A stretch of DNA of 64,000 bases, taken from a candidate division WOR-3 bacterium. Its GTDB lineage: Bacteria > Hydrothermota > Tepidihabitantia > Tepidihabitantales > Tepidihabitantaceae. The notes under the pieces were generated by a model. It did no database searches. It was given only the letters and a program-made list of their open reading frames with translations, and was not told the DNA's origin. The stretch is taken from the NCBI GenBank assembly GCA_016867815.1, contig VGIR01000003.1, positions 2,495-66,494 of the forward strand, in the 5' to 3' direction. This document shows positions 3,326-31,310 of this stretch, piece after piece (the stretch's first letter is position 1; each line of letters begins with the position of its first letter). Position numbers and translations under genes: made by a program.

Positions 3326-3372
3326 TTCCTGGGAGCGTGTCTTTGTGGTTACTCCTCTTCCGGTTCTTGGTC

Positions 3373-3402: not shown

Positions 3403-3418
3403 CGGCTAGACTGGCGCC

Positions 3419-4723: not shown

Positions 4724-4822
4724 CCGCGTTTCACGCACAACGCACGATACATCACTCCGGAGCGGCTGGGTCGGATTTCGGCGTCAGGCTTCAGGCGTGA
4801 GGCTCCTGCCGCCCGCGCCTGT

Positions 4823-4851
4823 TTGACTCTGTTCGGAGGGCCGTCTAGAAT
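4823..4851 (+). promoter_or_regulatory. putative sigma70-like promoter (TTGACT N17 TAGAAT)
   Basis: gtTTGACTctgttcggagggccgtcTAGAATtg upstream of the secreted peptidase gene. Confidence 0.45.
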
Positions 4852-4893
4852 TGTAGAGTGACAGGAGAATGCCAGTACCAGGAGAATAGTGTG

Positions 4894-7053
4894 ATGAAGA
4901 TCTCAGCAGGGCTGATGGCCCTTTTTGTCTTGGCCGTGGCGATGCCGATGCCGGATGCCGGAGCGACTCCGCCCAACGCCGTCCCGTTCGCAACCGCGCG
5001 CCAGGTCGCGCTTAACCGGGCGGCGATCGAGTACCCGGGCGCCCGGCTCGGCACCGTTGTCCCATACGTCGATGAGGACGGGAACGCTGTCGCCTGGATG
5101 TTCCACTTCCGGGTTGACGGGAAGGAGTTCCCGAGATACGAACAGGTCGCGGCCGACGTCCAGGCCGAGCGGCAGACCCTGACCGTGAACACCGATCTGT
5201 CACGCTGGCGATCGCAGTACAGCCACATTCTCGTGTCGGCGCGCCGCGACCGGGCACCGGTAATCCGCTTCGGCTACGGCACTTCCGAGTACTACGCGCT
5301 GGCATCCAGGGCGCAGTCGCGGGCAAGGCAGATGCTCGGACCTGATGCCGGATTGACGCGCATCTACTATGTCAGTCCCACCACCTATCTCGAGTTCACC
5401 AACCGGGCGGGCAAGACGGCCGTGTTTAGCCAGCACTTCGAGCGGACTTGGGATTCGCGTGAGGAGTTCGCCGGTTACGTGACGGAGGCGCGGGCGCAGC
5501 TCCGGCAGCAATACCCGGGCGAGGATGCCGCGGCCGCCAAGCACCATAGCGCACTCTGGGACCGGGCGCTCGACGGCAAACTGGGCAGGTTCAGCGAGGT
5601 ATTCGTGCCGAACATCGGGCTCGCCCCTTTCTATGACTGGAGCTACGGGTGCACGCCGACCTCGGGCGCGATGGTCTGCGGCTACGTGGACCGGGTTCAG
5701 AAGTCGGGCCGGCTGGTAGATTGGTACGTCCAACGCTACGACGGGGTCGAGGGAGAGAGCGACTGGCAAATCCCCAACGTGCAGCGGGAATGCGCCATCG
5801 AGATGAACACCGACACGACGTTCGGCGGTACAAGTATCCTCTTCATTGCCAACGGTCTTCTCCAGGTCGGGTACAACAACGACTACAACGGCTGGGCAGT
5901 GACGAACGTCACGGGCCGGACCAGCAACGACTGGGCCTGGTCTACTATCACCTCGCAGATCAACGCCGGCCACGCGATGATCTGGTCACCCCTGTGGGAG
6001 GCACATTCGCTGGCCTGCTTCGGGTACCGCACCGAGGACAAGTACGTGTACGTCCACAATACCTGGTGGATGCCGGCTGAGTGGTGGGCGCATTCGGGCA
6101 GCGACGTATCTCATGTTGCTGCCGTCACCCCCGACGCCGGAGATGCACGCAACATCCGGCTGACCTATCCGCTGGGTGATACGTTCTACAATTCGACCGG
6201 CCGCGGCGAGGTGCTATACGTCGGCGATACCGTACGCATCACCTGGGAGAGCGGCACGCCGGGCACGAGCGTCGATATCGATGTCTCGACCGATGGCGGG
6301 GCGACCTGGCAGGTCGCGGCCGCCGATGTGGCCGACAGCGGCGCATATCACTGGTACATACCGCCCTCCATTCCCACCTGCGATTCGGTCCGGCTGCGGG
6401 TAGGTCAGTACAGTGGGTCGACTCTGACCTCGGCCGACGGCACGTTCGGTTGTTTCCACGTGCTGAAGGAGCCGGTGCCGCCGCCGCAGATTGCCCCGCC
6501 CAACGGGTTGCCGATACCCTCGGACAACCTCCCGGTTGTACTTGAGGTCGACTCGGTCCGGGCGGCCTGTGACAGCATTCACTTCAAGCTGGTGCAGGGA
6601 CTCGACACCCTGCTGGAGCAGAACGGCACCACGGCTCATTTCCTATTGCCCGATTCCATCCTCAAGTTGAACAAGATCTACAAGTGGATAGTGCGGGGGC
6701 GGAACCAGTGGGGATGGGGCAAGTGGGGCACGCCGTGGTCGTTCCGCGTTGTGGCAGCCGGCGCTCAGGAAGAGAAGCCGTCCGCCGTTCTGCCTGTGTT
6801 CTTGGTGCCGGCAGTGAGTCGGTTGGGCGCCGGCAGCGTCCAGTTCGACGTGCGCATGGCAGCGCCGGGCAGCAAGTTGATTGTGTATGACGCATTCGGT
6901 AGCCTCATCCGCGAACTCGTGGTGGCGCAACCGAGTCGGCTGGCCTGGGACATGACCGATGCGAGCGGCCGGAAGCTGGCGGCCGGGCTCTACTTCGCCC
7001 GCCTTGCCGGTGGCGCGAACCAGCCGAGCGCGAAGCTGGTCCTCCTCGACTGA
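4894..7053 (+). CDS. secreted peptidase C39-like domain protein with Ig-like/GPI-anchored-type beta-sandwich domains and T9SS C-terminal sorting domain
   Basis: start taken at MKISAGL (signal peptide); motif YGCTPTSGAMVCGY resembles peptidase_C39-like Cys site; C-terminus ...LIVYDAFGSLIRELV...GLYFARL...KLVLLD matches Por secretion tail / FlgD-Ig-like pattern. Confidence 0.6.
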   Translation: MKISAGLMALFVLAVAMPMPDAGATPPNAVPFATARQVALNRAAIEYPGARLGTVVPYVDEDGNAVAWMFHFRVDGKEFPRYEQVAADVQAERQTLTVNTDLSRWRSQYSHILVSARRDRAPVIRFGYGTSEYYALASRAQSRARQMLGPDAGLTRIYYVSPTTYLEFTNRAGKTAVFSQHFERTWDSREEFAGYVTEARAQLRQQYPGEDAAAAKHHSALWDRALDGKLGRFSEVFVPNIGLAPFYDWSYGCTPTSGAMVCGYVDRVQKSGRLVDWYVQRYDGVEGESDWQIPNVQRECAIEMNTDTTFGGTSILFIANGLLQVGYNNDYNGWAVTNVTGRTSNDWAWSTITSQINAGHAMIWSPLWEAHSLACFGYRTEDKYVYVHNTWWMPAEWWAHSGSDVSHVAAVTPDAGDARNIRLTYPLGDTFYNSTGRGEVLYVGDTVRITWESGTPGTSVDIDVSTDGGATWQVAAADVADSGAYHWYIPPSIPTCDSVRLRVGQYSGSTLTSADGTFGCFHVLKEPVPPPQIAPPNGLPIPSDNLPVVLEVDSVRAACDSIHFKLVQGLDTLLEQNGTTAHFLLPDSILKLNKIYKWIVRGRNQWGWGKWGTPWSFRVVAAGAQEEKPSAVLPVFLVPAVSRLGAGSVQFDVRMAAPGSKLIVYDAFGSLIRELVVAQPSRLAWDMTDASGRKLAAGLYFARLAGGANQPSAKLVLLD

Positions 7054-7173: not shown

Positions 7174-8427
7174 TTAGTCGACGGGTTCTGGAGCTGGGAC
7201 TATCGTCGGTCTCGGGTGACGGAAGGCCGGCAGGGCAATCAGGGCGCCCACGAGCACGATACCCGCGCCGAAGAAGAACGGCAGGTTGATGTGCAGACCG
7301 TATAGCCAGCCGGCCAGCACCGGGCCGACTATCCTGCCGAGCGAGTCGAAGGAACTGACCACGCCCATCGTCGCGCCCTGCCCGGCATCGGTCTGCTTCG
7401 ACACGGCAGAACTGAGCCCGGGTCGGACCAACGAACCACCGGCCATGTTGAGGGCCACGAACACCGTTAGCGAAACCAGGTTCCATGACTGCGTCAGGAG
7501 TATGAAGCCGATGGCGGTGCCGACAAGTCCCGCGAGGATGAGACGGTTCTCACCGTAGCGGTTGATCGCCGGGCCGACAAGCAATCCCTGCATCAGCACC
7601 GACACGACGCCGATGACGGTGAAGACCAGCCCCATTTCACGCGGTCCGAACCCGAACCTGTCGAGGGAGAAGTAGGCGAAGATGCCCTCGAGGTTGGCCG
7701 CCGCGAAGCTGGTCAGGAAGGCGATGACGAAGTAGATCGCGAGCTCGCTCCTGAGCGCGTTGGCCAGCTCCCGCAGGCGGTGCGGCTTCTTCTCCCGAGT
7801 GCCGGTGACACGTCGCTCGCGGGGAAGACTCTCAGGCAGGTATGCCCAGGCCAGGGGAATCAGAAGGGCCACCAGTCCGGCCGCCACGAAGAACGGCGCC
7901 TGGAAGCTGTTCGTGAAGTGCGAGACAGACCCGCCGATGGCCGGGCCGAAGATGACGCCCGCACCCATTGCGGCGCCGAATATCCCCATCCCTGCTCCCC
8001 GCTCGTGCTCACCGGTTACGTCCGAGATGAACGCCATCGCCGTGGGCAGAACCGCAGACGAAAGGATGCCGCCCAGGACCCGGGAGACAAAGAGCATTGC
8101 CACGCTGCTAGCGAAGCCGTTGACGAGGTGCGACAGCATGTAGCCGACGAGGCCGATCATGAGTACCGGTTTGCGGCCGATGCGGTCCGAGACCGTGCCC
8201 CAGATCGGGGCGAATATGAATTGGAAGAATGAGAACGTAGCCATAATCATGCCGAGGTGAAGCGACGTCGCTCCCAGGGACTTCGCATACATGGGTAGTA
8301 CGGGTATGATGATGCCGAACCCCATCATCGCCACGAAGAGGCCGAAGAAGAGTATGGCTACGCTGCGGTTTTTCAATAACATGCGCAAGACGATTAGACG
8401 CGCGACACCAGCAGGCCGGTTCGCCAA
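7174..8427 (-). CDS. MFS transporter (DHA1-like multidrug/tetracycline-efflux family)
   Basis: 417 aa, 12 predicted TM helices, MFS motif GxxSDRxGRKP (GTVSDRIGRKPVLM) after TM2. Confidence 0.8.
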   Translation of the reverse strand: MANRPAGVARLIVLRMLLKNRSVAILFFGLFVAMMGFGIIIPVLPMYAKSLGATSLHLGMIMATFSFFQFIFAPIWGTVSDRIGRKPVLMIGLVGYMLSHLVNGFASSVAMLFVSRVLGGILSSAVLPTAMAFISDVTGEHERGAGMGIFGAAMGAGVIFGPAIGGSVSHFTNSFQAPFFVAAGLVALLIPLAWAYLPESLPRERRVTGTREKKPHRLRELANALRSELAIYFVIAFLTSFAAANLEGIFAYFSLDRFGFGPREMGLVFTVIGVVSVLMQGLLVGPAINRYGENRLILAGLVGTAIGFILLTQSWNLVSLTVFVALNMAGGSLVRPGLSSAVSKQTDAGQGATMGVVSSFDSLGRIVGPVLAGWLYGLHINLPFFFGAGIVLVGALIALPAFRHPRPTIVPAPEPVD

Positions 8428-8539
8428 AGCGTCAGCGCGGTCCGCGGCGATCGACCCGCGGGCCGGAAGTGGTGAGGCGTTTGGATGCGGGGGCCGCCGT
8501 TGTCTCTGAGCATGCCCCTCCCCGAAGTCGTGGAGGAGG

Positions 8540-8574
8540 ATAAACGAGAAACCGGGGCAGCAGGGCCGCCCCGG
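8540..8574 (-). terminator. rho-independent terminator for minus-strand gene 8596..9018
   Basis: minus strand reads CCGGGGCGGCCCTGCTGCCCCGG followed by TTTCTCGTTTAT. Confidence 0.5.
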
Positions 8575-8595
8575 TATGCAGCCTAGGTCTGTGGT

Positions 8596-9018
8596 CTATT
8601 GCTGCGGAGGGACAGGCGGGGGCGCGGGCTGGTAGGCGTCGGTCCGGTCGGCCGGCTCGTTCTTGCGCGCTACCCGGATGATGGCAAAACAGGCAAGCAT
8701 GGCCAGGCCGATGAATCCGAAGATGAATCCGCCGGTGTAGTCATTGCCCTGTCTGGCCATCTCGCCCGCGAACAGGGCCAGCCCGAAGGCAAAGAGTATA
8801 GCTCCGGTGATTAGCAGGCCGTAGTAGTTGCCCTTCTGTTTGCGGGGCGGAGGCGGCATCATTCCCTGTTCTATCATCTTCATCCGTTCTTTGTGCCGCC
8901 GGTTCACAACCGCCAGGACAATGGCCAGCAGGGCGATAATCGCCAGTATTGCTGGCGCGAATACCAGCGTGACGACCACAATCCCGGTCGCCGAATCAAG
9001 GAAGGCAGATGGGGTCAT
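8596..9018 (-). CDS. hypothetical small membrane protein with proline-rich C-terminus
   Basis: 140 aa, three hydrophobic helices, PPPP/APPPVPP tail; no recognisable family. Confidence 0.4.
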   Translation of the reverse strand: MTPSAFLDSATGIVVVTLVFAPAILAIIALLAIVLAVVNRRHKERMKMIEQGMMPPPPRKQKGNYYGLLITGAILFAFGLALFAGEMARQGNDYTGGFIFGFIGLAMLACFAIIRVARKNEPADRTDAYQPAPPPVPPQQ

Positions 9019-19408: not shown

Positions 19409-20089
19409 TCATGCGTCACGCGTCCCGCCGCAGGCCCGGACACACAGCCCGCAGATGTACTGGCTGACGTAGCGTTTGCTCTGGAACTCCTTGAGCATTG
19501 CGAAGCAGTCCAGATGCTTGAACTCGGTCTGAGTCTCACCGATGGCCTTGGCAGGGCAGGCCGTGATACAGGCACGGCACGAGCCACAACCGTTCTCAAG
19601 CGGGTGGTCGGGTTCGAGATCGAGGTCAGTCAGGATCGTTACCAGTCTGACTTGCGAGCCGAACCGCGGGGTGACAAGCAGGTTGTTGCGGCCGAGCCAG
19701 CCTAGCCCGGCTCCGACAGCGACACGCTTGTGCGACAGATGGCCCCGTTGGTTCTGCCAGTCAACGAGCTGAGATGCGGCGACGGGCAGCGCCAATGCTC
19801 CCAGGCTTTCAATCAGCGCGGCGAGGTCCAGCCCGAGCCGGTCCAGCGCGAAGTTGACCTGTCGGTAGTGGTGCTCGTATAGCTGGTTTGGATGGTCTTC
19901 GAGCGTTCCGAGAACTGCCGGGGACAAGTGTAGCGCGATGCTGATGGCATTCGGCAGGTCCCGAGTCGTCTTCTCCGGCAGGAGGAAGTCGTCGGTCTTG
20001 ATGTCATTGAGCCGGCAGACGCCGAAGCCAACCGCTCCCCGACTCTTGCACAGCTCCGCGAGTCCCTCTTTGGTCTCTTGTGGTATCAC
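19409..20089 (-). CDS. 4Fe-4S cluster protein, epoxyqueuosine reductase (QueG)-like C-terminal domain
   Basis: [16 protein letters not shown] and second Cys cluster CGLCVRACG; 226 aa is shorter than canonical QueG; overlaps mnmG by 4 nt. Confidence 0.55.
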
Positions 20090-22038
20090 TTGGGTCCCTT
20101 CAGGTAGGCGAGGAGCGCGAACACGGCTGCCGGCGTGATGCCCGTCATGCGCTGCGCCATACCAACTGAGGCGGGCCGATTGCGGGCCAGTCTCTCTCGG
20201 ACTTCGTTTGAAAGTCCGGGTACGCGACCGAAGTCGAGTCTCTCGGGGATCGCGATGGACTCCAGTTCTGCAAACTGACCGAGCTGGCGCTTCATCCGTT
20301 CGATGTAGCCCTCGTATTTCACCTCAAGCTCCACCAGTTCGACAACCTGGTTGCCGAACTGACCGCCATTCGCCATTTGGGCCAGGTCAGTCCATGTCAC
20401 TTCGGGTCTGCGCAGGAGCTCAATGGCTGGGACCGATTCGGCAATCGGCGTTGTGCCGAGCGCCTTGAGTTTCCTGTTGGCTCTGGGCGTGGCCCTGATA
20501 CGGGCCGAGGTGAGCCACTTCGTCGCCTCGTCACACTGGTGCTGTTTCTCCTGAATGCGGCTGTACTGCTTCCCCGTGAGCAGGCCGAGTTCGTATGCGC
20601 GCGGACCGAGGCGCAGGTCGGCGTTGTCTTCACGCAGGAGCAGGCGATACTCGACTCGGGCAGTGAACATCCGGTACGGCTCGTCCGTGCCCTTGGTGAC
20701 GAGGTCGTCAATCATCACCCCGATGTACGAGTCGGCGCGGGTCAGAACGAGTGGCGGTTTCTCCAGCACGCGCAGCGCGGCATTGGCGCCCGCGACAAGC
20801 CCCTGGGCCGCGGCTTCCTCGTACCCGGTGGTGCCGTTTATCTGTCCGGCAAAGTAGAGATTGCGGATGGGGCGGGTTTCGAGTGTAGGGTAGAGCTGGG
20901 TCGGGTCAGAATAGTCGTGCTCGATGGCGTAACCCGGCCTGAGCATCCGGCAATCCTCAAGCCCTTTGATAGAATGGAGCATCCGAAGCTGCAGGTGGAC
21001 CGGTAGGCTCGTCGAGATGCCGTTCGGGTAGCATTCGACCGTGTCCGTGCCTTCGGGTTCGATGAAGATGTGATGACGGTCGCGGTCAGAGAACTTCACG
21101 ACCTTGTCCTCAATGGATGGGCAGTACCTGACGCCTTGCCCCTTGATGACGCCCGAGTAGAGCGGAGACTGCTTCAGGCCCGCACGGACGATGCGGTGCG
21201 TAGTCGGGTTCGTATAGGTGACGTAGCAGCTTGTCTGGTTCTGCGGTGGAGCGTCGGTCCAGTCCGAGAACGGAACCGGCGGCTCATCACCATCCTGCCG
21301 GATCATAGCCTTCAGGTCCAGCGACCGCATGTCCAGCCGCGCCGGTGTACCGGTCTTGAACCGACCGATACTGAATCCCAGTTCGCGCAGGTTCGCGCCC
21401 AGCCTCTGTGCCGGCGCCTCGCCCAGGCGGCCGGCCGGAAAGCTGGTGAGCCCGATATGGACGAGACCGTTCAGGAACGTGCCCGGCGCGAGCACGACTG
21501 TCTTCGCCCGCAACTGCTCTCCCAGCTCCGTCTCGACCCCCACGCACGTCCTGCCCTTCACCAATACTCTCGCCACCGTGCCTTGGTGCAAAAGAGGTCT
21601 GCCCGCCCCTTTGGTTCGGTTCGTCCTTCTGTGTGTCTCCGGCGCTCTGGATTCTGGACTCTCGTCTCTGAATTCTGGACTATCCTCTCCCGATGTCCCT
21701 TCCAGCAGTTGCTTGACCAACCTGCGATACAGCTGTCTATCCACCTGCGCCCGCGACGACCGCACCGCCCGTCCCTTGCTCGTGTTCAGTTGGCGGAAGT
21801 GGATGCCGGCTCTGTCAGTCAGTTGCCCCATCGCACCGCCCATGGCGTCCAGTTCGCGCACCAGTTGTCCCTTGCCGATGCCGCCGACCGCGGGGTTGCA
21901 TGACATCAGGCCGATGGTGTCGAGGTTCTGGGTTACGAGCAGAGTCGAGCAGCCCATCCGGGCCGCGGCCAGCGTCGCCTCGACGCCGGCATGCCCGGCC
22001 CCGACTACTACCACGTCATACGTTTCCTGGTGCTTCAA
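20086..22038 (-). CDS. mnmG: tRNA uridine 5-carboxymethylaminomethyl modification enzyme MnmG (GidA)
   Basis: FAD-binding GAGHAGVEA, MnmG conserved blocks throughout; contains about 30-aa low-complexity insertion encoded by in-frame heptamer array at 21646-21688. Confidence 0.9.
21646..21688. repeat. TCTGGAC-type heptamer tandem array (6 units, 42 nt) in frame inside mnmG
   Basis: tctggattctggactctcgtctctgaattctggactatcctc encodes [14 protein letters not shown] on minus strand, absent from canonical MnmG. Confidence 0.8.
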
Positions 22039-22092
22039 GGTCGAGGTGATTCTAAGTGCTTGGGTGTCTGAGTCAACGCAGCCGCACGATAT
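21961..22092. repeat. reference copy: mnmG 5' end plus divergent promoter region (template of three downstream duplicate copies)
   Basis: ccagcgtcgcctcgacgccggcatgcccggccccgac... aligns with copies at 22848, 23730 and 26980. Confidence 0.85.
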
Positions 22093-22120
22093 TGACTTTC
22101 TCTACCAGCAAGTTACAGTG
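22093..22120 (+). promoter_or_regulatory. putative promoter of cassette 1 (TTGACT N16 TACAGT)
   Basis: atTTGACTttctctaccagcaagtTACAGTgactgcgagATG. Confidence 0.45.
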
Positions 22121-22128
22121 ACTGCGAG

Positions 22129-22449
22129 ATGACGTCCAAAGTCGGACAGGTGCTTGCCGAACTCCGCGCTAGACTGCGAGAGCTGTACGGCGAACGGCTG
22201 GTGAGGCTTGTGCTGTTCGGCTCGCAGGCACGCGGCGACGCCCGGCCGGATTCAGACATAGACGTAGTGGTCGTGCTTCGAGGAGACGTCGATGTCGAGG
22301 TGGAGCGGCGGCGTGTGCTGCCGATCACGGCTGAGTTGTCGCTGGAGCACAATGTCGTAATCCTTTGCGTGTACCTGTCGGAGCGTCGCTTCGGTCAGGA
22401 ACAGAGTCTGCTGCTCCGTAACGTTCGAACGGAAGGCATCGCGGTGTGA
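22129..22449 (+). CDS. nucleotidyltransferase (MNT-type antitoxin of HEPN/MNT module)
   Basis: GS...D...D motif LFGSQARGDARPDSDIDV typical of minimal nucleotidyltransferases. Confidence 0.75.
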   Translation: MTSKVGQVLAELRARLRELYGERLVRLVLFGSQARGDARPDSDIDVVVVLRGDVDVEVERRRVLPITAELSLEHNVVILCVYLSERRFGQEQSLLLRNVRTEGIAV

Positions 22450-22841
22450 ACGAACAGCAGAGAGCGCTGCTGGCGAAGGCGCGTGAGAGCCTGGACGTTG
22501 CCCGCGAGATTGACGCTCGCGGGAGCCATGGATTTGCCGCGTCGCGTGCCTACTACGCCATGTTCTACGTGGTCGAAGCGCTGCTGCTCGACGACGGGCT
22601 TGAGTATGGCAGTCACTCGGCGCTCATCGCTGCCTTCGGCGAGAGATTCCAGAAACCAGGTCGTGTCCCCGCGGGTTTCCATCGGATGTTGCTGGACGCG
22701 GCGGAATGTCGGCAACTCGGTGACTACGAGGTCAACGTTGAGGTCAGCGCAGGCATGGCGGGCGAGCAGATAGCGAACGCTCAGCGGTTCGTCGACCTCG
22801 CGCAGGGAATGCTCGGCTCGTCAACCGAGAACGCGCGCTAG
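22446..22841 (+). CDS. HEPN domain protein (toxin partner of MNT)
   Basis: 4-nt overlap with MNT gene; 131 aa helical protein with Rx4-6H-like HEPN signature region. Confidence 0.7.
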   Translation: MNEQQRALLAKARESLDVAREIDARGSHGFAASRAYYAMFYVVEALLLDDGLEYGSHSALIAAFGERFQKPGRVPAGFHRMLLDAAECRQLGDYEVNVEVSAGMAGEQIANAQRFVDLAQGMLGSSTENAR

Positions 22842-22847
22842 AACGGG

Positions 22848-22975
22848 CCAGCGCCGCCTCGACGCCGGCATGCCCGGCCCCGACCACGATCACGTCATAT
22901 GCCTGCTGCATCGTCCCGCTGATTCTAGATGTTCAGACATGCGAGTCAAACCGGCGACGGCGGAGACGCCCAAGG
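22848..22975. repeat. degenerate duplicate copy 1 of mnmG promoter + first ~26 codons
   Basis: reverse strand encodes [22 protein letters not shown] preceded by TTGACT N16 TAGAAT, matching the mnmG start region. Confidence 0.85.
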
Positions 22976-23001: not shown

Positions 23002-23029
23002 TTTGACTTGACTCCATGACGCAGTATGA
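23002..23029 (+). promoter_or_regulatory. putative promoter of cassette 2 (TTGACT N16 TATGAT)
   Basis: tTTGACTtgactccatgacgcagTATGATgtcc. Confidence 0.5.
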
Positions 23030-23044
23030 TGTCCGCAGCGAATC

Positions 23045-23323
23045 ATGATAGCCAAGAAGGACCGAGACACGATTGCCGAGGTCGCACGCGAGTACGGCGC
23101 GGCCAAGGTCGTGCTGTTCGGCTCGGCAACCTCCGAAGACCGCGAACCAAACGACATCGACTTGGGCGTCAAGGGGATCGAGTCGAGGCTCTTCTTCCGG
23201 TTCTATGGCGAGTTGATGATGCGCCTATCCAAGCCCGTAGACGTCATTGATCTTTCGGTCCGTTCCCGATTCGTGGAGCTGGTCGAGCGCGACGGCGTTG
23301 TGCTATATGCCTCAACTTCGTGA
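23045..23323 (+). CDS. nucleotidyltransferase (MntA-like antitoxin)
   Basis: LFGSATSEDREPNDIDLGV motif. Confidence 0.7.
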   Translation: MIAKKDRDTIAEVAREYGAAKVVLFGSATSEDREPNDIDLGVKGIESRLFFRFYGELMMRLSKPVDVIDLSVRSRFVELVERDGVVLYASTS

Positions 23324-23729
23324 GCGTCTACTGGCCGAAAAGGAGAACGTCGAGCTTGCGCTGACCAATCTCAGTTGTGCGATGGCGCGCACGGACCGGA
23401 CAGTCGTGGAGTTGACGGCTGCGGCGAGCTTCATCAGCAGCGTCTACAACGGAATAGAGAACATGCTGAAGCAGATACTCGCAGACCGCTCAATTGACAT
23501 ACCAAAGTCCGGCATGTGGCATCAGGAGTTGCTCAAACGCTCCGTCGCTGCTGAGGTCGTTTCGCCCGAGCTGGCGCAGGAGCTCAAGGAGTACCTGGGC
23601 TTCCGTCACTTCTTTGTCCATGGCTACGGTTTCATGGTGACCGAGTCGCCTCTTCAGGACTTGGCTTCGCGGCTGCCCGACGTCTGGGCGCGGTTCATGT
23701 CCGAGATCGGCCACGCCCTGGGCGACTAG
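23307..23729 (+). CDS. HepT-like HEPN toxin (DUF86-like)
   Basis: overlaps MNT stop; C-terminal RHFFVHGYG resembles HepT Rx4-6H motif; start chosen at ATG 23307 rather than track start 23247. Confidence 0.6.
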   Translation: MPQLRERLLAEKENVELALTNLSCAMARTDRTVVELTAAASFISSVYNGIENMLKQILADRSIDIPKSGMWHQELLKRSVAAEVVSPELAQELKEYLGFRHFFVHGYGFMVTESPLQDLASRLPDVWARFMSEIGHALGD

Positions 23730-23845
23730 CCAGCGCCGCCTCGACGCCGGCATGTCCGGCCCCGACCACAATCACATCACACGTCTGCTCGCGCTTCATT
23801 GTCCCGCTGATTCTAGGTATTCACAGGCCTGAGTCAAACCGCCGC
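23730..23845. repeat. degenerate duplicate copy 2 of mnmG promoter + 5' codons
   Basis: reverse strand encodes [24 protein letters not shown]. Confidence 0.85.
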
Positions 23846-23850
23846 TCAGC

Positions 23851-23879
23851 TTGACTTTGGTGGGAGTCGGATGCACAAT
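23851..23879 (+). promoter_or_regulatory. putative promoter of cassette 3 (TTGACT N17 CACAAT)
   Basis: cTTGACTttggtgggagtcggatgCACAATgcc. Confidence 0.45.
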
Positions 23880-23935
23880 GCCACGTGGAGACACGTGAAG
23901 CCGCTACCGACCTCTGGAGGGAGAACGACTACACG

Positions 23936-24733
23936 ATGGCCGCCGTTGCCTACTTTGACATGTTCGGCTTCTCTGTCTACCTGCGGAGGAGCGACACGAA
24001 GATCCGCGACGTGCTGACTTGGCTTGATGAGCTGGACCGAGAGACGGACGAGGGGCTCAAACGACGCCACTGCGCATCACAACTCAAGTCGGCTGTCTTC
24101 TCAGACTGCATGGTACGTGCTCTTCCGGTAGGTATCAGCGCGGCAACTTCTGTAGAAACGCTCCTGCTGGATGCTATCCGTGTTCAGAGGCGGTTGACTG
24201 CCACCGTGTGGACACGAAAGGACCAGGAGTTTCATCGGCCTGAGCTTCCGGTGCGAGGCGGCATCAATGTCGGGCAGCTCTACTGGGGCGGACGGCACGT
24301 CTTTGGAGAAGCGCTCGTGGAGGCCGTTGACCTTGAGAAGAAGATGGCGGTCTGGCCGCGCGTGGTCGTGGACCTCGACGTTGAGCTGGACCAGGTTGAT
24401 GAGTGGAGGTACCCGCCGGGTTTCACCGACTTCTTCGCTTGTGGAATTGACGGGTTTCCGCTGCTTCTAGAAGACAACGGGGTCAGATATCTGAACTACC
24501 TCGCGCCTATACAGACGGAGTTTGGCGAGTGGAGTGACATGCAGTTCTACAACAAGTACCTGCGCGACCACAAGTCACTGATCCTCAAGTTCCGTGAATC
24601 CGTCCAGAGGTCCAGCCAGATGATGTGCATCGAGGGCTGGGCGGAGTATCACAACTCTGTCGTGCGACACCTCAAAGAAGACAGACATGCGTCGAGCTAC
24701 TTGAGCAAGAAGGAGCTACTCGTCGATCTGTGA
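23936..24733 (+). CDS. class III nucleotidyl-cyclase-homology-domain protein with unknown C-terminal domain (candidate signalling cyclase)
   Basis: motif order AVAYFDMFGFS (FxDxxGF[ST]), about 45 aa later VFSDCMV (xGDxxM-like), then RGGINVGQLYWGG (RIGIHxGxVxxG-like) reproduces the spacing of adenylyl/guanylyl cyclase catalytic domains; start moved to ATG 23936 because track start 23885 abuts the -10 box. Confidence 0.5.
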   Translation: MAAVAYFDMFGFSVYLRRSDTKIRDVLTWLDELDRETDEGLKRRHCASQLKSAVFSDCMVRALPVGISAATSVETLLLDAIRVQRRLTATVWTRKDQEFHRPELPVRGGINVGQLYWGGRHVFGEALVEAVDLEKKMAVWPRVVVDLDVELDQVDEWRYPPGFTDFFACGIDGFPLLLEDNGVRYLNYLAPIQTEFGEWSDMQFYNKYLRDHKSLILKFRESVQRSSQMMCIEGWAEYHNSVVRHLKEDRHASSYLSKKELLVDL

Positions 24734-24753
24734 AAGAGGAAGGGAGCAAGCAT

Positions 24754-25827
24754 ATGAGGACTGCGTATCTGGCTGTGATAGCCGTGACAGCGCTGCTGGC
24801 GCTGCTTTCCTGCGACCAACAAGCCGAGCACGCCGGCCTATTCCCGGTGAGGGTCAGTGGGAAGTGGGGCTACATCGACAAGAGCGGCGCGATGGTCATC
24901 GACACCCTGTTTGATGAAGCGAGGGACTTCTCCGATGGCCTGGCGTTGGTACGCAAGGGCGGCAAGTATGACTACATAGACGTTACTGGCAAGCTGGTAA
25001 CCGATCTGCAGTTCGAGAACTGCTACTACTCGGACTTTACTGACGGGCTAGCGGCCGTCATTGTGTCCGTCTCGGACAGCCTCCATCAGTCGCAAACATG
25101 TGGCTACATTGACAAGACGGGCAGCCTTGCCATCGACACTGTGTTCTTGTACGGCCACCCTTTCACTGAGGGTTATGCAGCGGTGCTTGTCGACCAGTCC
25201 CTGTGGAGGTGGGGGTACATAGACAAGACCGGCAGGTTCGTCATAGCCGCGCAGTTCAGTGGCGCGGAGTCCTTCTCCGAGGGGCTGGCTGCCGTACTCG
25301 TCGGCGGGTGGAGCGACGGCAGGTATGGCTTCATCGACAAGACAGGCAGGCTCGTCATCAACCCTCAGTTCAGCCAAGTTGGCGATTTCTCCGAGGGCTT
25401 CGCGCCGGTTTGCGTCGCCGTTGGCGACTCCTTCAAGTGGGGCTTTGTCGGCAAGACCGGAAAGCTAGTCATCGATCCGCAGTTCGGGTACGCGTTTCCT
25501 TTCTCTGAGGGCTTGGCCGCGGTGATTGTCGGCGACTACAATACGGGGAAGGGCGGTTTCATCGACAAGACGGGCAAGCTCGTCGTCAGCCCGCAGTTTG
25601 ACTTCTATGGGAATGTCCCCGGTCCATACTCTGAGGGTCTCGCGGCAGTGATGGTCGGCGGACTATGGGGCTACATTGACCAAGCTGGAAGGTACGTGGT
25701 GAACCCTCAGTTCCTCGAAGCCCAGCCTTTTTCCGGTGGACTGGCGCGGGTCTGTACGGACTGGAGCGGGCCTACGCTCGGCTACATAGACAAGACGGGG
25801 AAGTACGTGTGGACGCCGACGAAGTAG
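24754..25827 (+). CDS. WG-repeat (KWGYIDKSG) lipoprotein
   Basis: lipobox LLALLSC; about 9 repeats of [KR]WGYIDKTG...F..A..FSEGLA. Confidence 0.7.
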   Translation: MRTAYLAVIAVTALLALLSCDQQAEHAGLFPVRVSGKWGYIDKSGAMVIDTLFDEARDFSDGLALVRKGGKYDYIDVTGKLVTDLQFENCYYSDFTDGLAAVIVSVSDSLHQSQTCGYIDKTGSLAIDTVFLYGHPFTEGYAAVLVDQSLWRWGYIDKTGRFVIAAQFSGAESFSEGLAAVLVGGWSDGRYGFIDKTGRLVINPQFSQVGDFSEGFAPVCVAVGDSFKWGFVGKTGKLVIDPQFGYAFPFSEGLAAVIVGDYNTGKGGFIDKTGKLVVSPQFDFYGNVPGPYSEGLAAVMVGGLWGYIDQAGRYVVNPQFLEAQPFSGGLARVCTDWSGPTLGYIDKTGKYVWTPTK

Positions 25828-26012
25828 GGCAAGATGGCTCCCAGCGCTAGTGCAGGCGGCGTCACTGGCTGAGATGGGCGGCCCAATGCATCCATGGTGC
25901 TCGCACCTGAGCGGAGTCTTCAACCGGTCGGTTATGGCTGAGGACCGTAGGCAGAAGCGCTGGACGTGAGTCTGTCGCTCCGAGACTTGAATGCCCTCGA
26001 CGGACGCCAAGC

Positions 26013-26930
26013 ATGAGCAAGGTGTTTGCGGAGACATCAACTCCGCCGGTTGCTGGTAAAGCCGTGTGCTGTGTCATTGGTCCAGTGGGCGACCCTGGCA
26101 CGCCCGTCCGCCTGCGTGCCGACTTGGTCTTCGAGCGAATCTTCTCGCCTGCTGCGGATCATTGCGGGTTCTCCGCGTGGCGCGCGGACCGCAGCGTTCT
26201 CCCCGGTCGCATACCTGACGAAGTGCTCCACCACCTGTATGACGACCCCGTCGTGATAGCAGACCTGACGGGGAACAACGGCAGTGTGGCCTACGAACTT
26301 GCAGTCCGCGACTTCTACGGCAAGCCGACCGTTGCTGTCATCGACGAGGGACAGCGCATTCCGTTCTACCAGTCTCAAGTCCGCGTGATCAGGATCAGTC
26401 ATCTGACTGAAGAGGCGATCGAGCGTAGCGTTGCCTCCGTCTCAGCATCGATTGGTGACGCAGTGCGTGCCGCTGTCGTGGCAGACAGCCCGTTCGCAGA
26501 GGCGGTCAGGCTGCGCGACACCCGGCTGAGCGGAGCCGAGGCCAAAGGCGTGTACCTCTATTGCGTAGACCTCGACCTTCATCGCCAGATTCGGGATTTT
26601 CTTGCAGGCCACGGGGTGGCGATTGTCGCGAGGGATGAGCGGCAGGGTCGATTGGGGGGCACTCCAGCGCTGATGCGTGAGATTTGCTGCCAGGCGGCCG
26701 CGGCCGTTGTCGTAATGCGCCGCGACGCGAGAGGTCAGCCGCTGTCTGACACTGACTACGTGCTGGGGGCGGCACAGGCAGCATTCGGCATGGACCGCGT
26801 GATCGCCATGCTGGAGGTGGGCGCAGGATGGCAGGGCCACCTCGCTGGGTACTGGCATGGCTTCCGCAGAGACCCGCTCGACCTCAGCAGCCTCAGGCTT
26901 CGCCTGCTGGAGATGGGACTGGTGAAGTGA
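26013..26930 (+). CDS. hypothetical protein with two tandem nucleoside 2-deoxyribosyltransferase-like (NDT/TIR-like Rossmann) repeats
   Basis: N-half VIADLTGNNGSVAYELAVRDFYGKPTVAVID resembles NDT signature (D..G.n.G...E.G.A...GKP); C-half DYVLGAAQAAFGMDRVIAM is a degenerate second copy lacking the Glu. Confidence 0.5.
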   Translation: MSKVFAETSTPPVAGKAVCCVIGPVGDPGTPVRLRADLVFERIFSPAADHCGFSAWRADRSVLPGRIPDEVLHHLYDDPVVIADLTGNNGSVAYELAVRDFYGKPTVAVIDEGQRIPFYQSQVRVIRISHLTEEAIERSVASVSASIGDAVRAAVVADSPFAEAVRLRDTRLSGAEAKGVYLYCVDLDLHRQIRDFLAGHGVAIVARDERQGRLGGTPALMREICCQAAAAVVVMRRDARGQPLSDTDYVLGAAQAAFGMDRVIAMLEVGAGWQGHLAGYWHGFRRDPLDLSSLRLRLLEMGLVK

Positions 26931-26979
26931 GGCGGGCCATCCGGTCGCCCGCCGCTATCGTTCGTTCGTTAGCGACTCA

Positions 26980-27095
26980 CCGCGCCGCTTCGACGCCGGC
27001 ATGCCCGGCCCCGACGACAATCACATCATACGTCTGCTTGCGCTTCATGGACTCGCTGATTCTAGGAGTTCGCAGGCCTGATTCAGACCGCCGCG
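26980..27095. repeat. degenerate duplicate copy 3 of mnmG promoter + 5' codons (possibly the ancestral pre-insertion copy)
   Basis: reverse strand encodes [22 protein letters not shown]; closest to copy 2. Confidence 0.8.
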
Positions 27096-27099
27096 CGGC

Positions 27100-27128
27100 T
27101 TGACTTCTCGGAGAATCTGATTCACAAT
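27100..27128 (+). promoter_or_regulatory. putative promoter (TTGACT N17 CACAAT)
   Basis: cTTGACTtctcggagaatctgattCACAATgcc; the track ATG at 27127 lies inside the -10 box. Confidence 0.4.
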
Positions 27129-27237
27129 GCCGAGTGGCAAGATGCTACGCTTCTTCCGGCTGCTGGTCTGTGCCAGAGTCGGAAATGTGCGAATGGCGGG
27201 CATCCCACACTGCCGCAACCGTGGGAGGCGCCAGACG

Positions 27238-27645
27238 ATGAGACGCGTATACAGATTGAACGGTGCACAGGTGGGAGTCCTCTGCGGAATCACGGCAGTA
27301 GTGTCATTCCTGATAATCTGGGGTGGTACCGGGTCTACGCAGTTCTACAAGTATCAGACTGAGGACGACGTGTGGACAGCAACCGTTCTCGCCAGCTCCG
27401 TCGGTGGCTTCAAGGGGTTGTGGGACTCGGGGACCCGCAACTACTGCACGTATCTCGACTGTAGCGACGGACAGACACGCAAGTTCTACCTCACGCGCTC
27501 CATCAACCATTACTTTCTGGATTCCGAGAAGCACCCTCTTGAACGAATCGCGCTTGTGGTCGTGCTGGTTGGAGTCATGCTCATCTACACGCTGGGATGG
27601 GCAGTCCAACGCAGACTGCGGGATGACTCAGTTGTTGCTAGGTGA
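27238..27645 (+). CDS. hypothetical small membrane protein (start uncertain; track start 27127 rejected)
   Basis: two TM helices; alternative starts 27142/27193. Confidence 0.4.
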   Translation: MRRVYRLNGAQVGVLCGITAVVSFLIIWGGTGSTQFYKYQTEDDVWTATVLASSVGGFKGLWDSGTRNYCTYLDCSDGQTRKFYLTRSINHYFLDSEKHPLERIALVVVLVGVMLIYTLGWAVQRRLRDDSVVAR

Positions 27646-27671
27646 AGCGTGTTATCAAGGAGGCAGTTCCT

Positions 27672-28199
27672 ATGAAGTCACGTCACAGCGGCCCGGCTAT
27701 TCTGGTGCTGGTTCTTGTATCGCTGGCGGGAGGGCAGAGCCTAACGGAGGTACTGACCGTGGAGGTCGAAGGACAGACCTATGGCGCGGCGTGGCTCGGT
27801 CCGGGTGCTTTTGGCGGCGTGACGGGCCTCGTCTCGACTGGGCAGACCAAGATATGGAAGGGATTTCGGGGCGGCCTGCCTGTATCCGAGGCCGAGTTCT
27901 ACCGCACGGCTGGCTACAACGACATCGCGGAGAAGGCCGAGTCGAGAAAGGGCACAAGCGACTGCCTGACGTGGGGCGGACTCGGCACATGCATTGCAGG
28001 ACTCGCATTGCTGGTCGTAGCCGCCGTCAAGGTGGGTGAATCGGGTGAGGGTCAGCCGGGCCTAGCTATCGCCGGAGTGGGCGGCGCTCTCGGAGGACTG
28101 ACCGTGGAGTTGATAGGTGTCTCGATGCGGGGTCATCTGACGCCAGCCAGCTTCGCGGTCCGCGTCGCCGAGGAATACAACGATCGCCTCAGGCGGTAG
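27672..28199 (+). CDS. hypothetical secreted/membrane glycine-rich protein
   Basis: signal peptide AILVLVLVSLAGG, Gly-rich C-terminal TM segments. Confidence 0.45.
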   Translation: MKSRHSGPAILVLVLVSLAGGQSLTEVLTVEVEGQTYGAAWLGPGAFGGVTGLVSTGQTKIWKGFRGGLPVSEAEFYRTAGYNDIAEKAESRKGTSDCLTWGGLGTCIAGLALLVVAAVKVGESGEGQPGLAIAGVGGALGGLTVELIGVSMRGHLTPASFAVRVAEEYNDRLRR

Positions 28200-28215
28200 G
28201 TAGGCTGGACTGGCA

Positions 28216-28836
28216 ATGACCTCAGACACCGGGTACTGGCTCTGCAGTGCCGTCGCGCAGTCCTTTGCTGCCCTAACCGCGCTGACCGGCCTCTTCGCAG
28301 TGTACAAGCTGCAGACGCTTCGAGGGAACAAAGAGGGTATCCTCTATCGGTTCTTGATCGAACTCGAGAAGACCCGTGCAGAGCTCAACAGACTCGCGCA
28401 GGGTGTTGCGCGTCAGTGGATCGACTCGGTCCCCGATGCCGTTGTTCCCATCACGGGTGAGCACGGATGGAAACAAGTCGTGAAGTCCTACCGGGACGAG
28501 TATGAGGTCCGCCTCGGCGAGGTGGCTAGGGGATGCGGGCCGTCTAATGAGGAGCAGTGGGTCAGCAACAGGCGGGAGTTCTTCAGCGAGTTGATCCGGC
28601 AGCATGACAACACAACCAACCAGCAGAACGGCTGCAGCAAATGGGCGAAGGCAATGACGCTGGCTGACGGAATTATCACCTTGTTCTCGCTTGTCCTGAT
28701 CCTGGGAGTGCCCTATCTTGGGTCTACGCTGCCCGTCAGCTTGGTCGTGCTGCTTGTTCTTGCGGGCTTCGCTCTCGGACTGACTCTCTTCGCGTGTGTG
28801 AAGATACTTGCCATCGGAGAGTTGACGGACTCGTGA
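28216..28836 (+). CDS. hypothetical membrane protein
   Basis: N-terminal TM, soluble middle, two C-terminal TM helices. Confidence 0.5.
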   Translation: MTSDTGYWLCSAVAQSFAALTALTGLFAVYKLQTLRGNKEGILYRFLIELEKTRAELNRLAQGVARQWIDSVPDAVVPITGEHGWKQVVKSYRDEYEVRLGEVARGCGPSNEEQWVSNRREFFSELIRQHDNTTNQQNGCSKWAKAMTLADGIITLFSLVLILGVPYLGSTLPVSLVVLLVLAGFALGLTLFACVKILAIGELTDS

Positions 28837-29048: not shown

Positions 29049-29110
29049 CAAGCGCAAGCTCAAGCACAAGCCGGGCAAGAGCCGCAAGCCTCAAGCCACA
29101 AGCTTCAAGC
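29049..29110. repeat. CAAGCC-type heptamer tandem array
   Basis: caagcgcaagctcaagcacaagccgggcaagagccgcaagcctcaagccacaagcttcaagc. Confidence 0.9.
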
Positions 29111-29164
29111 TATCCGGAAGGTCGTTCTCGTCGAGTGACGTCGGGCTCTGGAAAGCATCGAGCA

Positions 29165-29465
29165 AGCGACTCTCCCGACAGCTCTCCGAGTAGTCCTCCC
29201 AACTCCCCTCCGAATTGCCCGGCGGGCTGCTTTCCGGATTATCTGCTGAGCTACTCTCCGGACAAACTGCGGAGCAGTCCGCGGAACTGCCTTCCCCGCA
29301 GTTCGCCGAGGAGCTCGCCGAGTTCCTCTCCGGATAGCTCTCCGAGTAGCTGACCGAATAGCTGTCCGGGCAGTTCTCCAGATTTCCTTCCGGATAGCCT
29401 GCGGAGCAACCTGCCGGACTGCTTTCCGGGCAGCTTGCCGAACTGCCTCCCGAACAACCTGGGGG
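29165..29465. repeat. degenerate 12-bp minisatellite (consensus CCGGAnAGCTnT, about 25 units), locus 1
   Basis: ccggatagctct ccgagtagctga ccgaatagctgt ccgggcagttct ... read directly. Confidence 0.9.
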
Positions 29466-29600
29466 GCGGGGTAGGGGAGGAGAGTGAATGCCCAATAACC
29501 AATTACTAATGAAGAAGTTAGAACAACTCGGGACTTGCCTCCAGGAGGACATATAGGAAACTGGACGCGTGCGACCGGCCTCAAGTGAGGGGCCGGTTTC
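29466..29600. repeat. conserved ~130-bp flank of the 12-bp minisatellite (second copy at 57489-57640)
   Basis: gggaggagagtgaatgcccaataaccaattactaatgaagaagttagaacaactcgggacttgcctccaggaggacatataggaaactgg is about 75% identical to 57489-57600. Confidence 0.8.
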
Positions 29601-29720: not shown

Positions 29721-30920
29721 ATGCCTCTTCTTGATCTCCGGCCGCAAGCAGTGCGCAGGACGCCCGCACAAATGGTCGAACACCTGAAGTCATTCAACCT
29801 CGACCTGAAGTTCTCTGCCGGGATCTGGTTCTTCTCGCCGTCGGAAAGCCGGTTCCATAAGAAGCATGGGCCTGACCTCTCGATCGAGCAGCGGCTGGAG
29901 ATTGCGCGGGGACTGAAGGAGTACGGTCTCGCCGGGCTGGAGGCGCACTACCCGAACGAGATCAACGAGGAGAATGAGAAGCTGTGGCGCGACTTCTGTG
30001 CCGACTCCGGCATGCGGCTGGTGACGGTTGTGCCGCTCCTATTCCGCAGTCCCAAGTTCGAGTTCGGTTCGCTCTCCAGCCCGTTGCCCGAAGCGCGCAA
30101 GGCAGCGATTGAAGTCACGCGGCGCGCGTTTGAGATGAACTGCCGGATGGATACCGATTTCTGCGTTGTCTGGCCCGGGATTGATGGGTATGAGAATCCG
30201 TTTGGCATGGACTTCGCCGCGATGCGCGACCGGTTCGCGGACGGCCTGGCCGAAGCTATGGACTGCGTGCCCGGGGTGCGGGTCGCGTTCGAGCCCAAGC
30301 CGTACGAGCCGCGCGGCCGAATCATCTTCGGTACGACGCCGGAGGGGCTGCTGCTCTGCCACATGGTAGAGGAGAGGCTGCAGAACCCGGAGAACCGGCG
30401 GCTCTTGGTCGAAGGCCATGCGCTCGTCGGGATGAATCCCGAGGTGGGGCATGCGCTGATGGCGTATGAAGACCTGCCGTACGCGTATAGCTGGCCACTA
30501 TCCGAAGGCAGGCTCTGTCACATGCACCTGAACAGCCAACCGCTCGGCAACTTCGACCAGGACCTGAACGTGGGGACTGTGGCGCCGGAACAGATTGAAG
30601 CGCTGCTCTATGTGCTGAAGATGCACGGCTATCAAGGCTGGTTCGGCATCGACATCAATCCCGAGCGCATGCCGGTGGACATGGGCCTGCGCATCTCGAT
30701 GGACGCGCTGCGCGCCGCCAATGACAGGATCACTGATCTTGACCACGAGTCAGTGGTCTTCGCAGTCAACCACCCGGACAAGGCGAGAGGGTGGCTTGAG
30801 GGATACCTCGTGCGCGCAAGGGCTCCACATCCGGAACGCCTGGCGCAGCTTCTACCCGTCGGGCCACAAGCCTCAAGCCACAAGCCGCAAGCTTCGGACC
30901 GGACGGGAGGATCGGAATGA
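29721..30920 (+). CDS. xylA: xylose isomerase (class I)
   Basis: AFEPKPYEPRG, NPEVGHALMA, HMHLNSQ...DQDL match XylA catalytic/metal-binding blocks; C-terminal about 15 aa are translated heptamer array. Confidence 0.75.
   Translation: MPLLDLRPQAVRRTPAQMVEHLKSFNLDLKFSAGIWFFSPSESRFHKKHGPDLSIEQRLEIARGLKEYGLAGLEAHYPNEINEENEKLWRDFCADSGMRLVTVVPLLFRSPKFEFGSLSSPLPEARKAAIEVTRRAFEMNCRMDTDFCVVWPGIDGYENPFGMDFAAMRDRFADGLAEAMDCVPGVRVAFEPKPYEPRGRIIFGTTPEGLLLCHMVEERLQNPENRRLLVEGHALVGMNPEVGHALMAYEDLPYAYSWPLSEGRLCHMHLNSQPLGNFDQDLNVGTVAPEQIEALLYVLKMHGYQGWFGIDINPERMPVDMGLRISMDALRAANDRITDLDHESVVFAVNHPDKARGWLEGYLVRARAPHPERLAQLLPVGPQASSHKPQASDRTGGSE
30863..30895. repeat. CAAGCC heptamer array at xylA 3' end
   Basis: ccacaagcctcaagccacaagccgcaagcttcgg. 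Confidence 0.9.
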
Positions 30921-31273
30921 GGAAGGTGGACGACTACGAAGTATTCAAGCGTGCACATCAACTGACTCTCGACATCTATCGGCTGACGAAGCGCTTTCCC
31001 AAGGACGAGCTGTACTGCCTCACCTCGCAGATGAGGCGCGCTGCATACTCGATACCCACCAACTTGAAGGAAGGCAGCACTGGGACCGAAACGGAGTTCT
31101 TTAGATACGTCCGAATCAGCCTGGGCAGCAAGGAGGAGCTTGCCTATCAGGTTCGGCTCGCCCGCGACCTGGGATACACCTCTGAGATAGACGCTAGGAA
31201 GCTGTCGTCAGAGATCAGCGAGATCGGCGGCATGCTGTTCGGTCTGCTCCGCAAGCGGGGGACCGGAGCTTGA
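30917..31273 (+). CDS. four-helix-bundle protein (23S rRNA intervening-sequence protein family)
   Basis: 118 aa; YEVFKRAHQLTLDIYRLTKRFPK...LYCLTSQMRRAAYSIPTNLKEG... characteristic of TIGR02436-type proteins. Confidence 0.75.
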   Translation: MRKVDDYEVFKRAHQLTLDIYRLTKRFPKDELYCLTSQMRRAAYSIPTNLKEGSTGTETEFFRYVRISLGSKEELAYQVRLARDLGYTSEIDARKLSSEISEIGGMLFGLLRKRGTGA

Positions 31274-31310
31274 AGCTTGAGGCTTGGGGCTTGAGGCCTC
31301 CGTTGCTTGC
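31267..31310. repeat. GGCTTGA heptamer array (inverted relative to 30863-30895)
   Basis: gcttgaagcttgaggcttggggcttgaggcc. Confidence 0.9.

Follow-up and report, generated by a model that had tools for sequence, protein, structure and literature searches.

Three open reading frames (ORFs) on the plus strand at 23885-26930 of the window, a 64,000-nucleotide (nt) stretch of contig VGIR01000003.1 (GCA_016867815.1) from a metagenome-assembled genome of candidate division WOR-3, had been read in a preliminary description as a nucleotide-signalling defence cassette. Here we propose that these genes, named G1, G2 and G3, are probably three independent accessory genes in an insertion hotspot and not one conserved machine. 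The trio was found nowhere else, and outside this lineage the 'three-gene system' does not hold as a unit. Within the class III cyclase fold, G1 forms a divergent branch, as G3 does within the assemblage of nucleoside 2-deoxyribosyltransferases (NDTs), DNPH1 and TIR domains; G2 reads as an exported lipoprotein with WG repeats, and no link between it and the other two could be demonstrated. All three ORFs are present as first described, the likely start of G1 excepted (lengths in amino acids, aa):

23885-24733, plus strand: G1 (locus tag FJY68_01090), 282 aa from GTG 23885 or 265 aa from the internal ATG 23936.
24754-25827, plus strand: G2, 357 aa, predicted WG-repeat (PF14903) lipoprotein with 8 repeats.
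26013-26930, plus strand: G3 (locus tag FJY68_01100), 305 aa, with an NDT/DNPH1-superfamily N-domain (aa ~14-170) and a lineage-specific C-terminal region (aa ~170-305).

The case for independence comes from the neighbourhoods of homologous genes. Homologues of G1 at 75% (locus L094) and 64% (L095) identity are each followed by an unrelated exported protein, with no WG-repeat gene. The genes beside distant homologues of G3 are unrelated ones, a restriction enzyme and integrases among them, and none is G1-like or a WG-repeat gene; around 80 metagenomic G3-family loci (412 kb) the count of G1-like or WG-repeat genes was 0, and no neighbour cluster reached 3 loci among 83 G3-family loci. The genome collection held 80 G1-family loci from many phyla, including Solirubrobacterales, Gammaproteobacteria, Bacteroidota and Fibrobacterota. 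When these were taken together with two further loci (L008 and L009), a G1-like gene was called in 73, among which the largest cluster of homologous neighbours comprised 6 loci. Immediate neighbours of the G1 family are mixed: some are type I specificity subunits, GmrSD, Abi_2, HNH or MADS components, and others are housekeeping genes. The preliminary description had tied its proposal to co-occurrence across genomes; essentially, the three genes never co-occur elsewhere. With the linkage of G1 to G2 already lost in the closest relatives, no conserved partners and no receptor domain, its nucleotide-signalling defence cassette is not borne out.

Two side observations concern the genes next to G1. 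In the closest relatives, what follows the G1 homologue is in every case a gene for an exported or lipoprotein-like protein (L094 2332-2460, L095 846-1490), but these proteins are homologous neither to each other nor to the protein with WG repeats. The six-locus cluster, all from Solirubrobacterales (L008 5628-5987, L009 5607-5969 and four others), consists of a ~120-130-aa protein encoded directly upstream of the G1-like gene and beside an AsnC-type regulator; it has no Pfam match and may be a lineage-specific partner of the G1-like gene.

In the window itself, the three genes stand side by side in one unit. A repeat search found a ~109-nt element, consisting of the 5′ coding end of mnmG and its upstream region, in four copies that alternate with the inserted genes:

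20086-22038, minus strand: mnmG, upstream of the cassettes.
21968-22076, minus strand: repeat copy 1, the reference, which is the true mnmG 5′ end with its upstream region.
22129-22449 (MNT) and 22446-22841 (HEPN), plus strand: cassette A, a toxin-antitoxin pair (Pfam NTP_transf_2, E=2.5e-13; HEPN, E=2.1e-10).
22847-22955, minus strand: repeat copy 2, a pseudo-copy of the mnmG 5′ end and promoter, with a minus-strand promoter-like site at 22949-22922.
23045-23323 (MNT) and about 23307-23729 (HepT-like HEPN), plus strand: cassette B (Pfam Polbeta, E=2.6e-8; HepT-like_2, E=8.3e-17).
23729-23837, no strand assigned: repeat copy 3, extending to 185 nt at 23733-23917 (region 23729-23917).
26978-27086, no strand assigned: repeat copy 4, extending to 185 nt at 26982-27166 and closing the G1-G2-G3 unit.

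Copies of the ~109-nt segment are 64-77% identical, the two extended 185-nt copies (23733-23917 and 26982-27166) are 79% identical, and a 26-nt core, TCGACGCCGGCATGCCCGGCCCCGAC, is present 4 times across the window where 0 would be expected. The four copies bound three successive units, MNT/HEPN-1, MNT/HEPN-2 and G1-G2-G3 (3.1 kb). Sigma-70-like sites lie on the plus strand at 22092-22119, 23003-23030, 23851-23879 and 27100-27128, such that a promoter-like site ends 0-15 nt 5′ of each unit's first start codon; the site ahead of G1 (23851-23879) reads TTGACT-17-CACAAT, that at 27100-27128 precedes the next variable gene set (27127-28836), and a promoter scan of the region gave 11 promoter-like sites against 1.5 expected. 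This close abutment on the start codons suggests that the cassette mRNAs would be leaderless or near-leaderless. No terminator-like site was found between G1, G2 and G3. Because the trio is bounded by repeats, lies behind one promoter-like site and contains no internal terminator-like site, it forms a single inserted and probably co-transcribed unit in this genome, with transcription probably starting from 23851-23879.

The region beside mnmG is an accretion or insertion hotspot, as had been proposed, and the two toxin-antitoxin modules described next to the cassette are indeed both MNT/HEPN pairs. The array resembles integron-like or tandem-island arrays in its short cassettes, each with its own outward promoter-like site, in its recurring ~110-nt element and in the fixed chromosomal gene that adjoins it; it differs from an integron in what recurs, which is the mnmG 5′ coding end with its promoter and not an attC site. 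No integrase was obvious nearby in the window's gene list, with the Pfam scan covering genes between 22 and 29 kb, and Rfam and tRNA scans of the cassette region gave no matches.

The first gene of the unit, G1, encodes a protein that direct profile searches miss. Comparison with Pfam, NCBIfam and PADLOC profiles returned nothing significant, and the Pfam Guanylate_cyc model (PF00211) gave no match even at E<=1, its gathering score not being reached; in UniRef the protein is labelled 'Guanylate cyclase domain-containing protein'. Its likely start is GTG 23885, giving 282 aa, because the N-terminal extension is kept in relatives. The protein stands alone, as first described, although at this length rather than the ~265 aa then given; residue numbers here follow the form that begins at ATG 23936. 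The motifs YFDMFGFS (aa 6-13), VFSDCMV (aa 54-60) and RGGINVGQLYWGG (aa 107-119) are present, with the two metal-type aspartates, D8 and D57, 49 residues apart and not about 46.

Relatives of G1 numbered 8 in a first search and rose to 163 proteins of 230-290 aa by profile search, none of which carries a Pfam domain. In an alignment of 120 sequences, D8, G11, S56, D57, R107, G108, F123, G124, A126, V128, E129, A130, L133, E134, P141 and R142, together with W235, Y238, H239 and N240 towards the C terminus, are at least 90% conserved or invariant. Single-sequence searches of the PDB with G1 or G3 yielded noise (for example, SOS and SnoaL) and were set aside. With the G1 family profile, the ten best PDB matches are all class III adenylyl cyclases (E 0.0085-0.17), and a HMMER alignment to Rv1625c places D8 on the Asp of F-x-D-x-x-G-F, D57 on the Asp of S-G-D and R107-G108 on R-x-G. 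The cyclase motifs of the preliminary description are therefore more than chance, being conserved in 120 family members and aligned on the motifs of solved class III cyclases. The cyclase-homology fold, a β-α-β-β-α-β palm with cyclase-type elaborations, is present in G1, and we regard its assignment as solid. It extends as far as about aa 190, interrupted at 154-173 by a disordered insert, and is followed by a ~60-aa helical extension, a helical hairpin with a conserved W..YHN motif; what had been called an unknown ~120-aa C-terminal domain is mostly the remainder of the cyclase fold.

The active site of G1 is non-canonical: it retains the metal Asp pair but has lost the Asn/Arg pair. In the alignment to 3mr7 (FGDAVNVAARLE versus FGEALVEAVDLE), Val128 occupies the position of the transition-state Asn, and the Arg position is variable in the family and is Asp132 in G1. 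The position of the substrate-specifying Lys (D-4) holds Ala. G1 thus has the metal Asp pair and R-x-G in common with class III cyclases such as Rv1625c, CyaC and sGC, but not the Asn/Arg pair of their helix α4 (x-N-x-A-x-R-x-E). Its family has invariants of its own (E129, E134, P141-R142, W235 and Y238-H239-N240), lacks sensor and transmembrane domains and adds the C-terminal hairpin. As the two-metal Asp pair and the phosphate-binding Arg are kept, G1 probably binds a nucleoside triphosphate (NTP) with two metal ions. The missing transition-state pair suggests that it would be either a mechanistically divergent nucleotidyl cyclase or transferase, or a nucleotide-binding pseudo-cyclase.

G3 contains the string ADLTGNNGSVAYELAVRDFYGKP, and D84, N89 and E95 are invariant in 123 relatives, as are R57, G65 and F118. 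Neither Pfam nor NCBIfam gave a significant match, and PADLOC returned only a weak match to a TIR effector (E=0.0031). The Pfam NDT model Nuc_deoxyrib_tr (PF05014) does not match G3; against a cut-off of 28.8 bits, the G3 relatives P0130 and P0017 reach 20.6 and 15.4, respectively. A word-indexed search found 9 relatives, whereas an exhaustive search (E<=1e-3) found at least 7363 representatives of 50%-identity clusters, so that an early view of the family as rare was rejected. Among 150 matches listed, the region in common is aa ~14-175 and total lengths range from 157 to 512 aa. The C-terminal regions of the family vary (coiled coil, TPR, TPR-S and pentapeptide).

These C-terminal regions gave coiled-coil noise when a full-length family profile was compared with the PDB, which was remedied by trimming to the N-domain; the 12 best matches are then all DNPH1/Rcl (E=6.7e-5 to 5e-3). 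In the AlphaFold2 model of G3, the predicted local distance difference test score (pLDDT) is 60-90 for the N-domain (aa 17-155, moderate) and below 50 for aa 155-305; a Foldseek search with this model returned DNPH1 and NDT enzymes as the best matches, with DNPH1 first (E about 1.5e-3) and a target-normalised template modelling (TM) score of up to 0.71. Glu95, in the Y-E-L motif of the family, falls on the GYELG Glu of Rcl, the residue that serves as catalytic nucleophile in DNPH1/Rcl. The general-acid Asp of DNPH1 (rat D69, human D80) aligns to Ile or Val. G3 therefore has in common with DNPH1/Rcl and the NDTs (clan Nribosyltransf; the 'DrHyd' of Burroughs and Aravind) a flavodoxin-like fold and the nucleophile Glu, and differs from DNPH1/Rcl in the loss of the general acid, in its own invariants (R57, G65, D84, N89 and F118) and in its variable C-terminal fusions. 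We infer that G3 is most likely an N-glycosidase that works by itself, using Glu95 as its nucleophile to attack a nucleotide or NAD-like substrate.

Of the two tandem NDT-like repeats first ascribed to G3, the N-terminal one stands as a DNPH1-like domain with Glu95 at the nucleophile position, and a degenerate C-terminal copy is not detectable: hhalign of the C-terminal region against the N-domain profile gave a probability below 1%. Such a degenerate copy in G3 is possible, because the nearest relative outside WOR-3, P0130 (329 aa, metagenomic), carries the NDT-like domain twice in a genuine tandem, of which the second copy matches Nuc_deoxyrib_tr below threshold (E=5e-4). The domain assignments of the preliminary description hold for G1 and for the N-domain of G3. 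G2 answers closely to its earlier description as a WG-repeat lipoprotein: eight stretches match Pfam WG_beta_rep (E=8.5e-86; 282 bits against a cut-off of 25.6), the DNA carries repeats of 111-114 nt, and a signal peptide with a lipobox (LLSC) can be read from the sequence.

Both enzyme-like families recur on mobile elements and near defence genes, and there is no Pfam or NCBIfam model for either. G3 matches the phage protein family phrog_3634 in PHROG (E=7.6e-24), and in Streptococcus and Staphylococcus prophages G3-like genes lie singly within the early region, in reverse orientation:

L090 3989-4648: ~217-aa G3-family protein (phrog_3634) of Streptococcus phage phiARI0923.
L091 3992-4642: ~217-aa G3-family protein (phrog_3634) of Staphylococcus phage P630.

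In both temperate phages the gene is single and lies on the other strand from the replication and early genes around it; a single gene opposite to the surrounding phage genes is the classic moron arrangement. Further G3-like genes lie on plasmids of Rhizobium, Citrobacter, Acinetobacter and others, some annotated as 'TRAFs-binding domain-containing protein', and among the genes next to family members are integrases, TIR_2, ThsB_TIR, Mrr, HNH, HicB, PIN and EAD11. G1-like genes occur alone on plasmids of Bacillus cereus, Rhizobium/Sinorhizobium and Acinetobacter, and G1 matches phrog_23933 (E=2.4e-12); tblastn of G1 against phage genomes gave nothing. At one locus (L049 3366-9443), a type I restriction-modification operon whose hsdR lies at 3366-6122 contains a G1-like gene (7920-8753) inserted between DUF5131 and hsdS genes so tightly that stop and start codons overlap, an arrangement that resembles passenger defence genes in restriction-modification loci.

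By their domain content the three genes are neither Pycsar nor CBASS nor Thoeris. Pycsar places a PycC cyclase next to a TIR or transmembrane effector that binds a cyclic nucleoside monophosphate (cNMP); G1 matches no PADLOC model, and the adjacency of cyclase and effector is not conserved here. CBASS, Thoeris and type III CRISPR combine a signal generator with a receptor, and neither part is matched in the cassette: in Pfam and PADLOC searches, G1, G2 and G3 showed no CD-NTase, ThsB-TIR or Cas10 family, apart from the weak TIR-effector match of G3, and G2 and G3 showed no cNMP-binding, SAVED, CARF or SLOG receptor domain. As G1 lacks the Asn/Arg pair and no cyclic-nucleotide receptor domain is recognisable, there is no positive support for a signalling circuit. 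The earlier remark that the combination matches no described system holds in this respect, although not as a statement about a conserved three-gene system. Parallels exist for G3 by itself. In Swarozyc (DUF4062), one gene provides defence through a TIR-like NADase that has a catalytic Glu and senses through its C-terminal part (bioRxiv 10.64898/2026.05.01.722283). Like Swarozyc and the NDT effector of retron Ec86, G3 has an N-terminal domain of the TIR/NDT superfamily with a putative catalytic Glu, a helical or auxiliary C-terminal region, a patchy distribution and a defence or mobile context. It matches neither DUF4062 nor TIR Pfam models, by which an identity with Swarozyc was rejected, and Pfam and Rfam scans found no retron reverse transcriptase or non-coding RNA near it.

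The scheme that we favour, with moderate confidence, is one in which the four diverged mnmG 5′ copies delimit three successive inserts beside mnmG, and in which each gene of the third would act on its own account. G1 belongs to a patchily distributed family of stand-alone proteins and would bind an NTP-metal complex. G3 would be a self-contained N-glycosidase effector whose C-terminal region senses a trigger and gates or oligomerises the enzyme, and would cleave a nucleotide or NAD-like substrate as single-gene TIR-like or NDT-like abortive-infection proteins do. Several observations weigh against this scheme. In this genome the trio lies on one strand, in one repeat-bounded unit and apparently behind one promoter. 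Adjacency of G2 and G3 recurs, although in just one relative (80% identical), whose contig breaks off within G2. The neighbourhood statistics used crude longest-ORF gene calling, and many G1-family members, mainly in Solirubrobacterales, sit amid housekeeping genes, which weakens a defence reading for G1. Finally, an NDT-like gene lies within 8 kb of a G1-like gene in 3 of 80 independent loci (L049, L064 and L082) as well as in the window. This exceeds naive chance, and some functional affinity between G1 and NDT-like proteins is possible; the naive significance estimate itself was discarded once the size of the G3 family was known. At L064 the NDT-like gene is a TPR-S-type G3-family member on the strand opposite to the G1-like gene. 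Those at L049 (2351-3358) and L082 (1889-2806) have another architecture, an N-terminal Zn-ribbon (CxxC...CPRCG) joined to a C-terminal canonical NDT-like domain; they are 30% identical (E=7e-38), come from Fibrobacterota and Nitrosomonadales, and lie upstream of the G1-like gene with 1-4 genes between. At L049, both the Zn-ribbon-NDT gene and the G1-like gene are passengers in the type I restriction-modification locus. The simplest explanation of the 3/80 co-occurrence is a preference of the two families for one type of island.

The same facts have been taken to describe one nucleotide-signalling defence system, in which G1 would make a cyclic nucleotide on infection, G3 would sense or cleave it and G2 would serve as an envelope sensor or accessory. 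The shared strand and repeat-bounded unit with one promoter-like site and no internal terminator would fit such a system, as would the metal Asp pair in the cyclase fold of G1, the NDT/TIR-related fold of G3 with its candidate catalytic Glu, the recurrence of the Zn-ribbon-NDT architecture near G1-like genes in different phyla and the joint presence of both genes in a restriction-modification locus. We nevertheless consider it very improbable, given that the trio occurs nowhere else, that the nearest relatives of G1 have other downstream genes, that neither family has a conserved neighbour and that G1-like genes are absent from the 80 G3-family loci; in the three co-occurring loci 1-4 unrelated genes separate the pair, which at L064 is on opposite strands, and G1 matches no PycC or other cyclase model of PADLOC, lacks the canonical Asn/Arg pair and has no partner in G2 or G3 with any of the receptor domains named above. 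A reading without conflict between host and parasite, by which G1 is a regulatory pseudo-cyclase (an ATP or nucleotide sensor) or a housekeeping cAMP/cGMP-type cyclase, and G2 and G3 are ordinary accessory genes of metabolism or the envelope, with G3, for example, a nucleotide-salvage hydrolase, seems to us unlikely, if well worth keeping in view. It sits poorly with a G1 family that is patchy across many phyla, borne on plasmids and matched in PHROG, with a G3 family found in the moron position of prophages, on plasmids and beside TIR, restriction-enzyme and toxin-antitoxin genes, and with a cassette that occupies an insertion hotspot next to two toxin-antitoxin pairs; the strict conservation of the metal Asp pair in G1 also favours chemistry over mere binding. 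That the array is a chimera of metagenome assembly, with strain variants chained through the shared mnmG 5′ segment, is scarcely credible. The genome is metagenome-assembled and the repeats have an exact core of ~26-29 nt in common, but an overall identity of only 64-79% leaves the copies too far apart for assembly to collapse them, 3-8 independent contigs of up to 76 kb encode the same G1 and G3 proteins, and an independent relative (L094) shows the same order of mnmG, MNT/HEPN, repeat and G1 homologue, which argues against an assembly artefact.

Beyond the three genes, the slot at 27127-28836, 3′ of G3, holds three small predicted membrane or unknown proteins without family matches and is another variable slot: in the 80%-identical relative (L001 2067-3565), genes for 336-aa and 134-aa unknown proteins take its place, and in both genomes shared AP_endonuc_2 and 23S-rRNA-IVP genes follow. 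The mnmG repeat is absent from the corresponding slot in L001. Farther along the window, GC-rich short repeats of the CAAGC(C/T) type at 29075-29111, 30863-30895 and 31267-31310 surround, as inverted repeats, the AP_endonuc_2 gene and the 23S-rRNA-IVP-like gene, and 29100-29590 is of low complexity, rich in SSP/PES, with long ORFs on both strands.

The array beside mnmG, with promoter-like sites abutting the start codons, represents an unexplained mechanism of insertion in a poorly studied phylum. For the genes that it carries, a bolder view is that G1 represents a new mobile-element-borne enzyme family of the class III fold in phage defence, cooperating in some loci (the window, L049, L064 and L082) with NDT/DNPH1-like N-glycosidases, and that the G3 family is independently a widespread, undescribed single-gene N-glycosidase defence. 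We hold this to be a long shot. If true, the G1 family, in which Glu, Arg and His residues of its own stand in for Asn/Arg, would produce or use up a nucleotide, and the two would form a loosely linked module of cyclase and nucleotide hydrolase unlike Pycsar, CBASS or Thoeris. We found no experimental accounts of the G1 or G3 family in the literature. Setting aside the unsupported three-gene signalling proposal avoids a wrong call of a new system and exposes two sizeable unnamed families, either of which is a reasonable candidate for a heterologous phage-defence screen.

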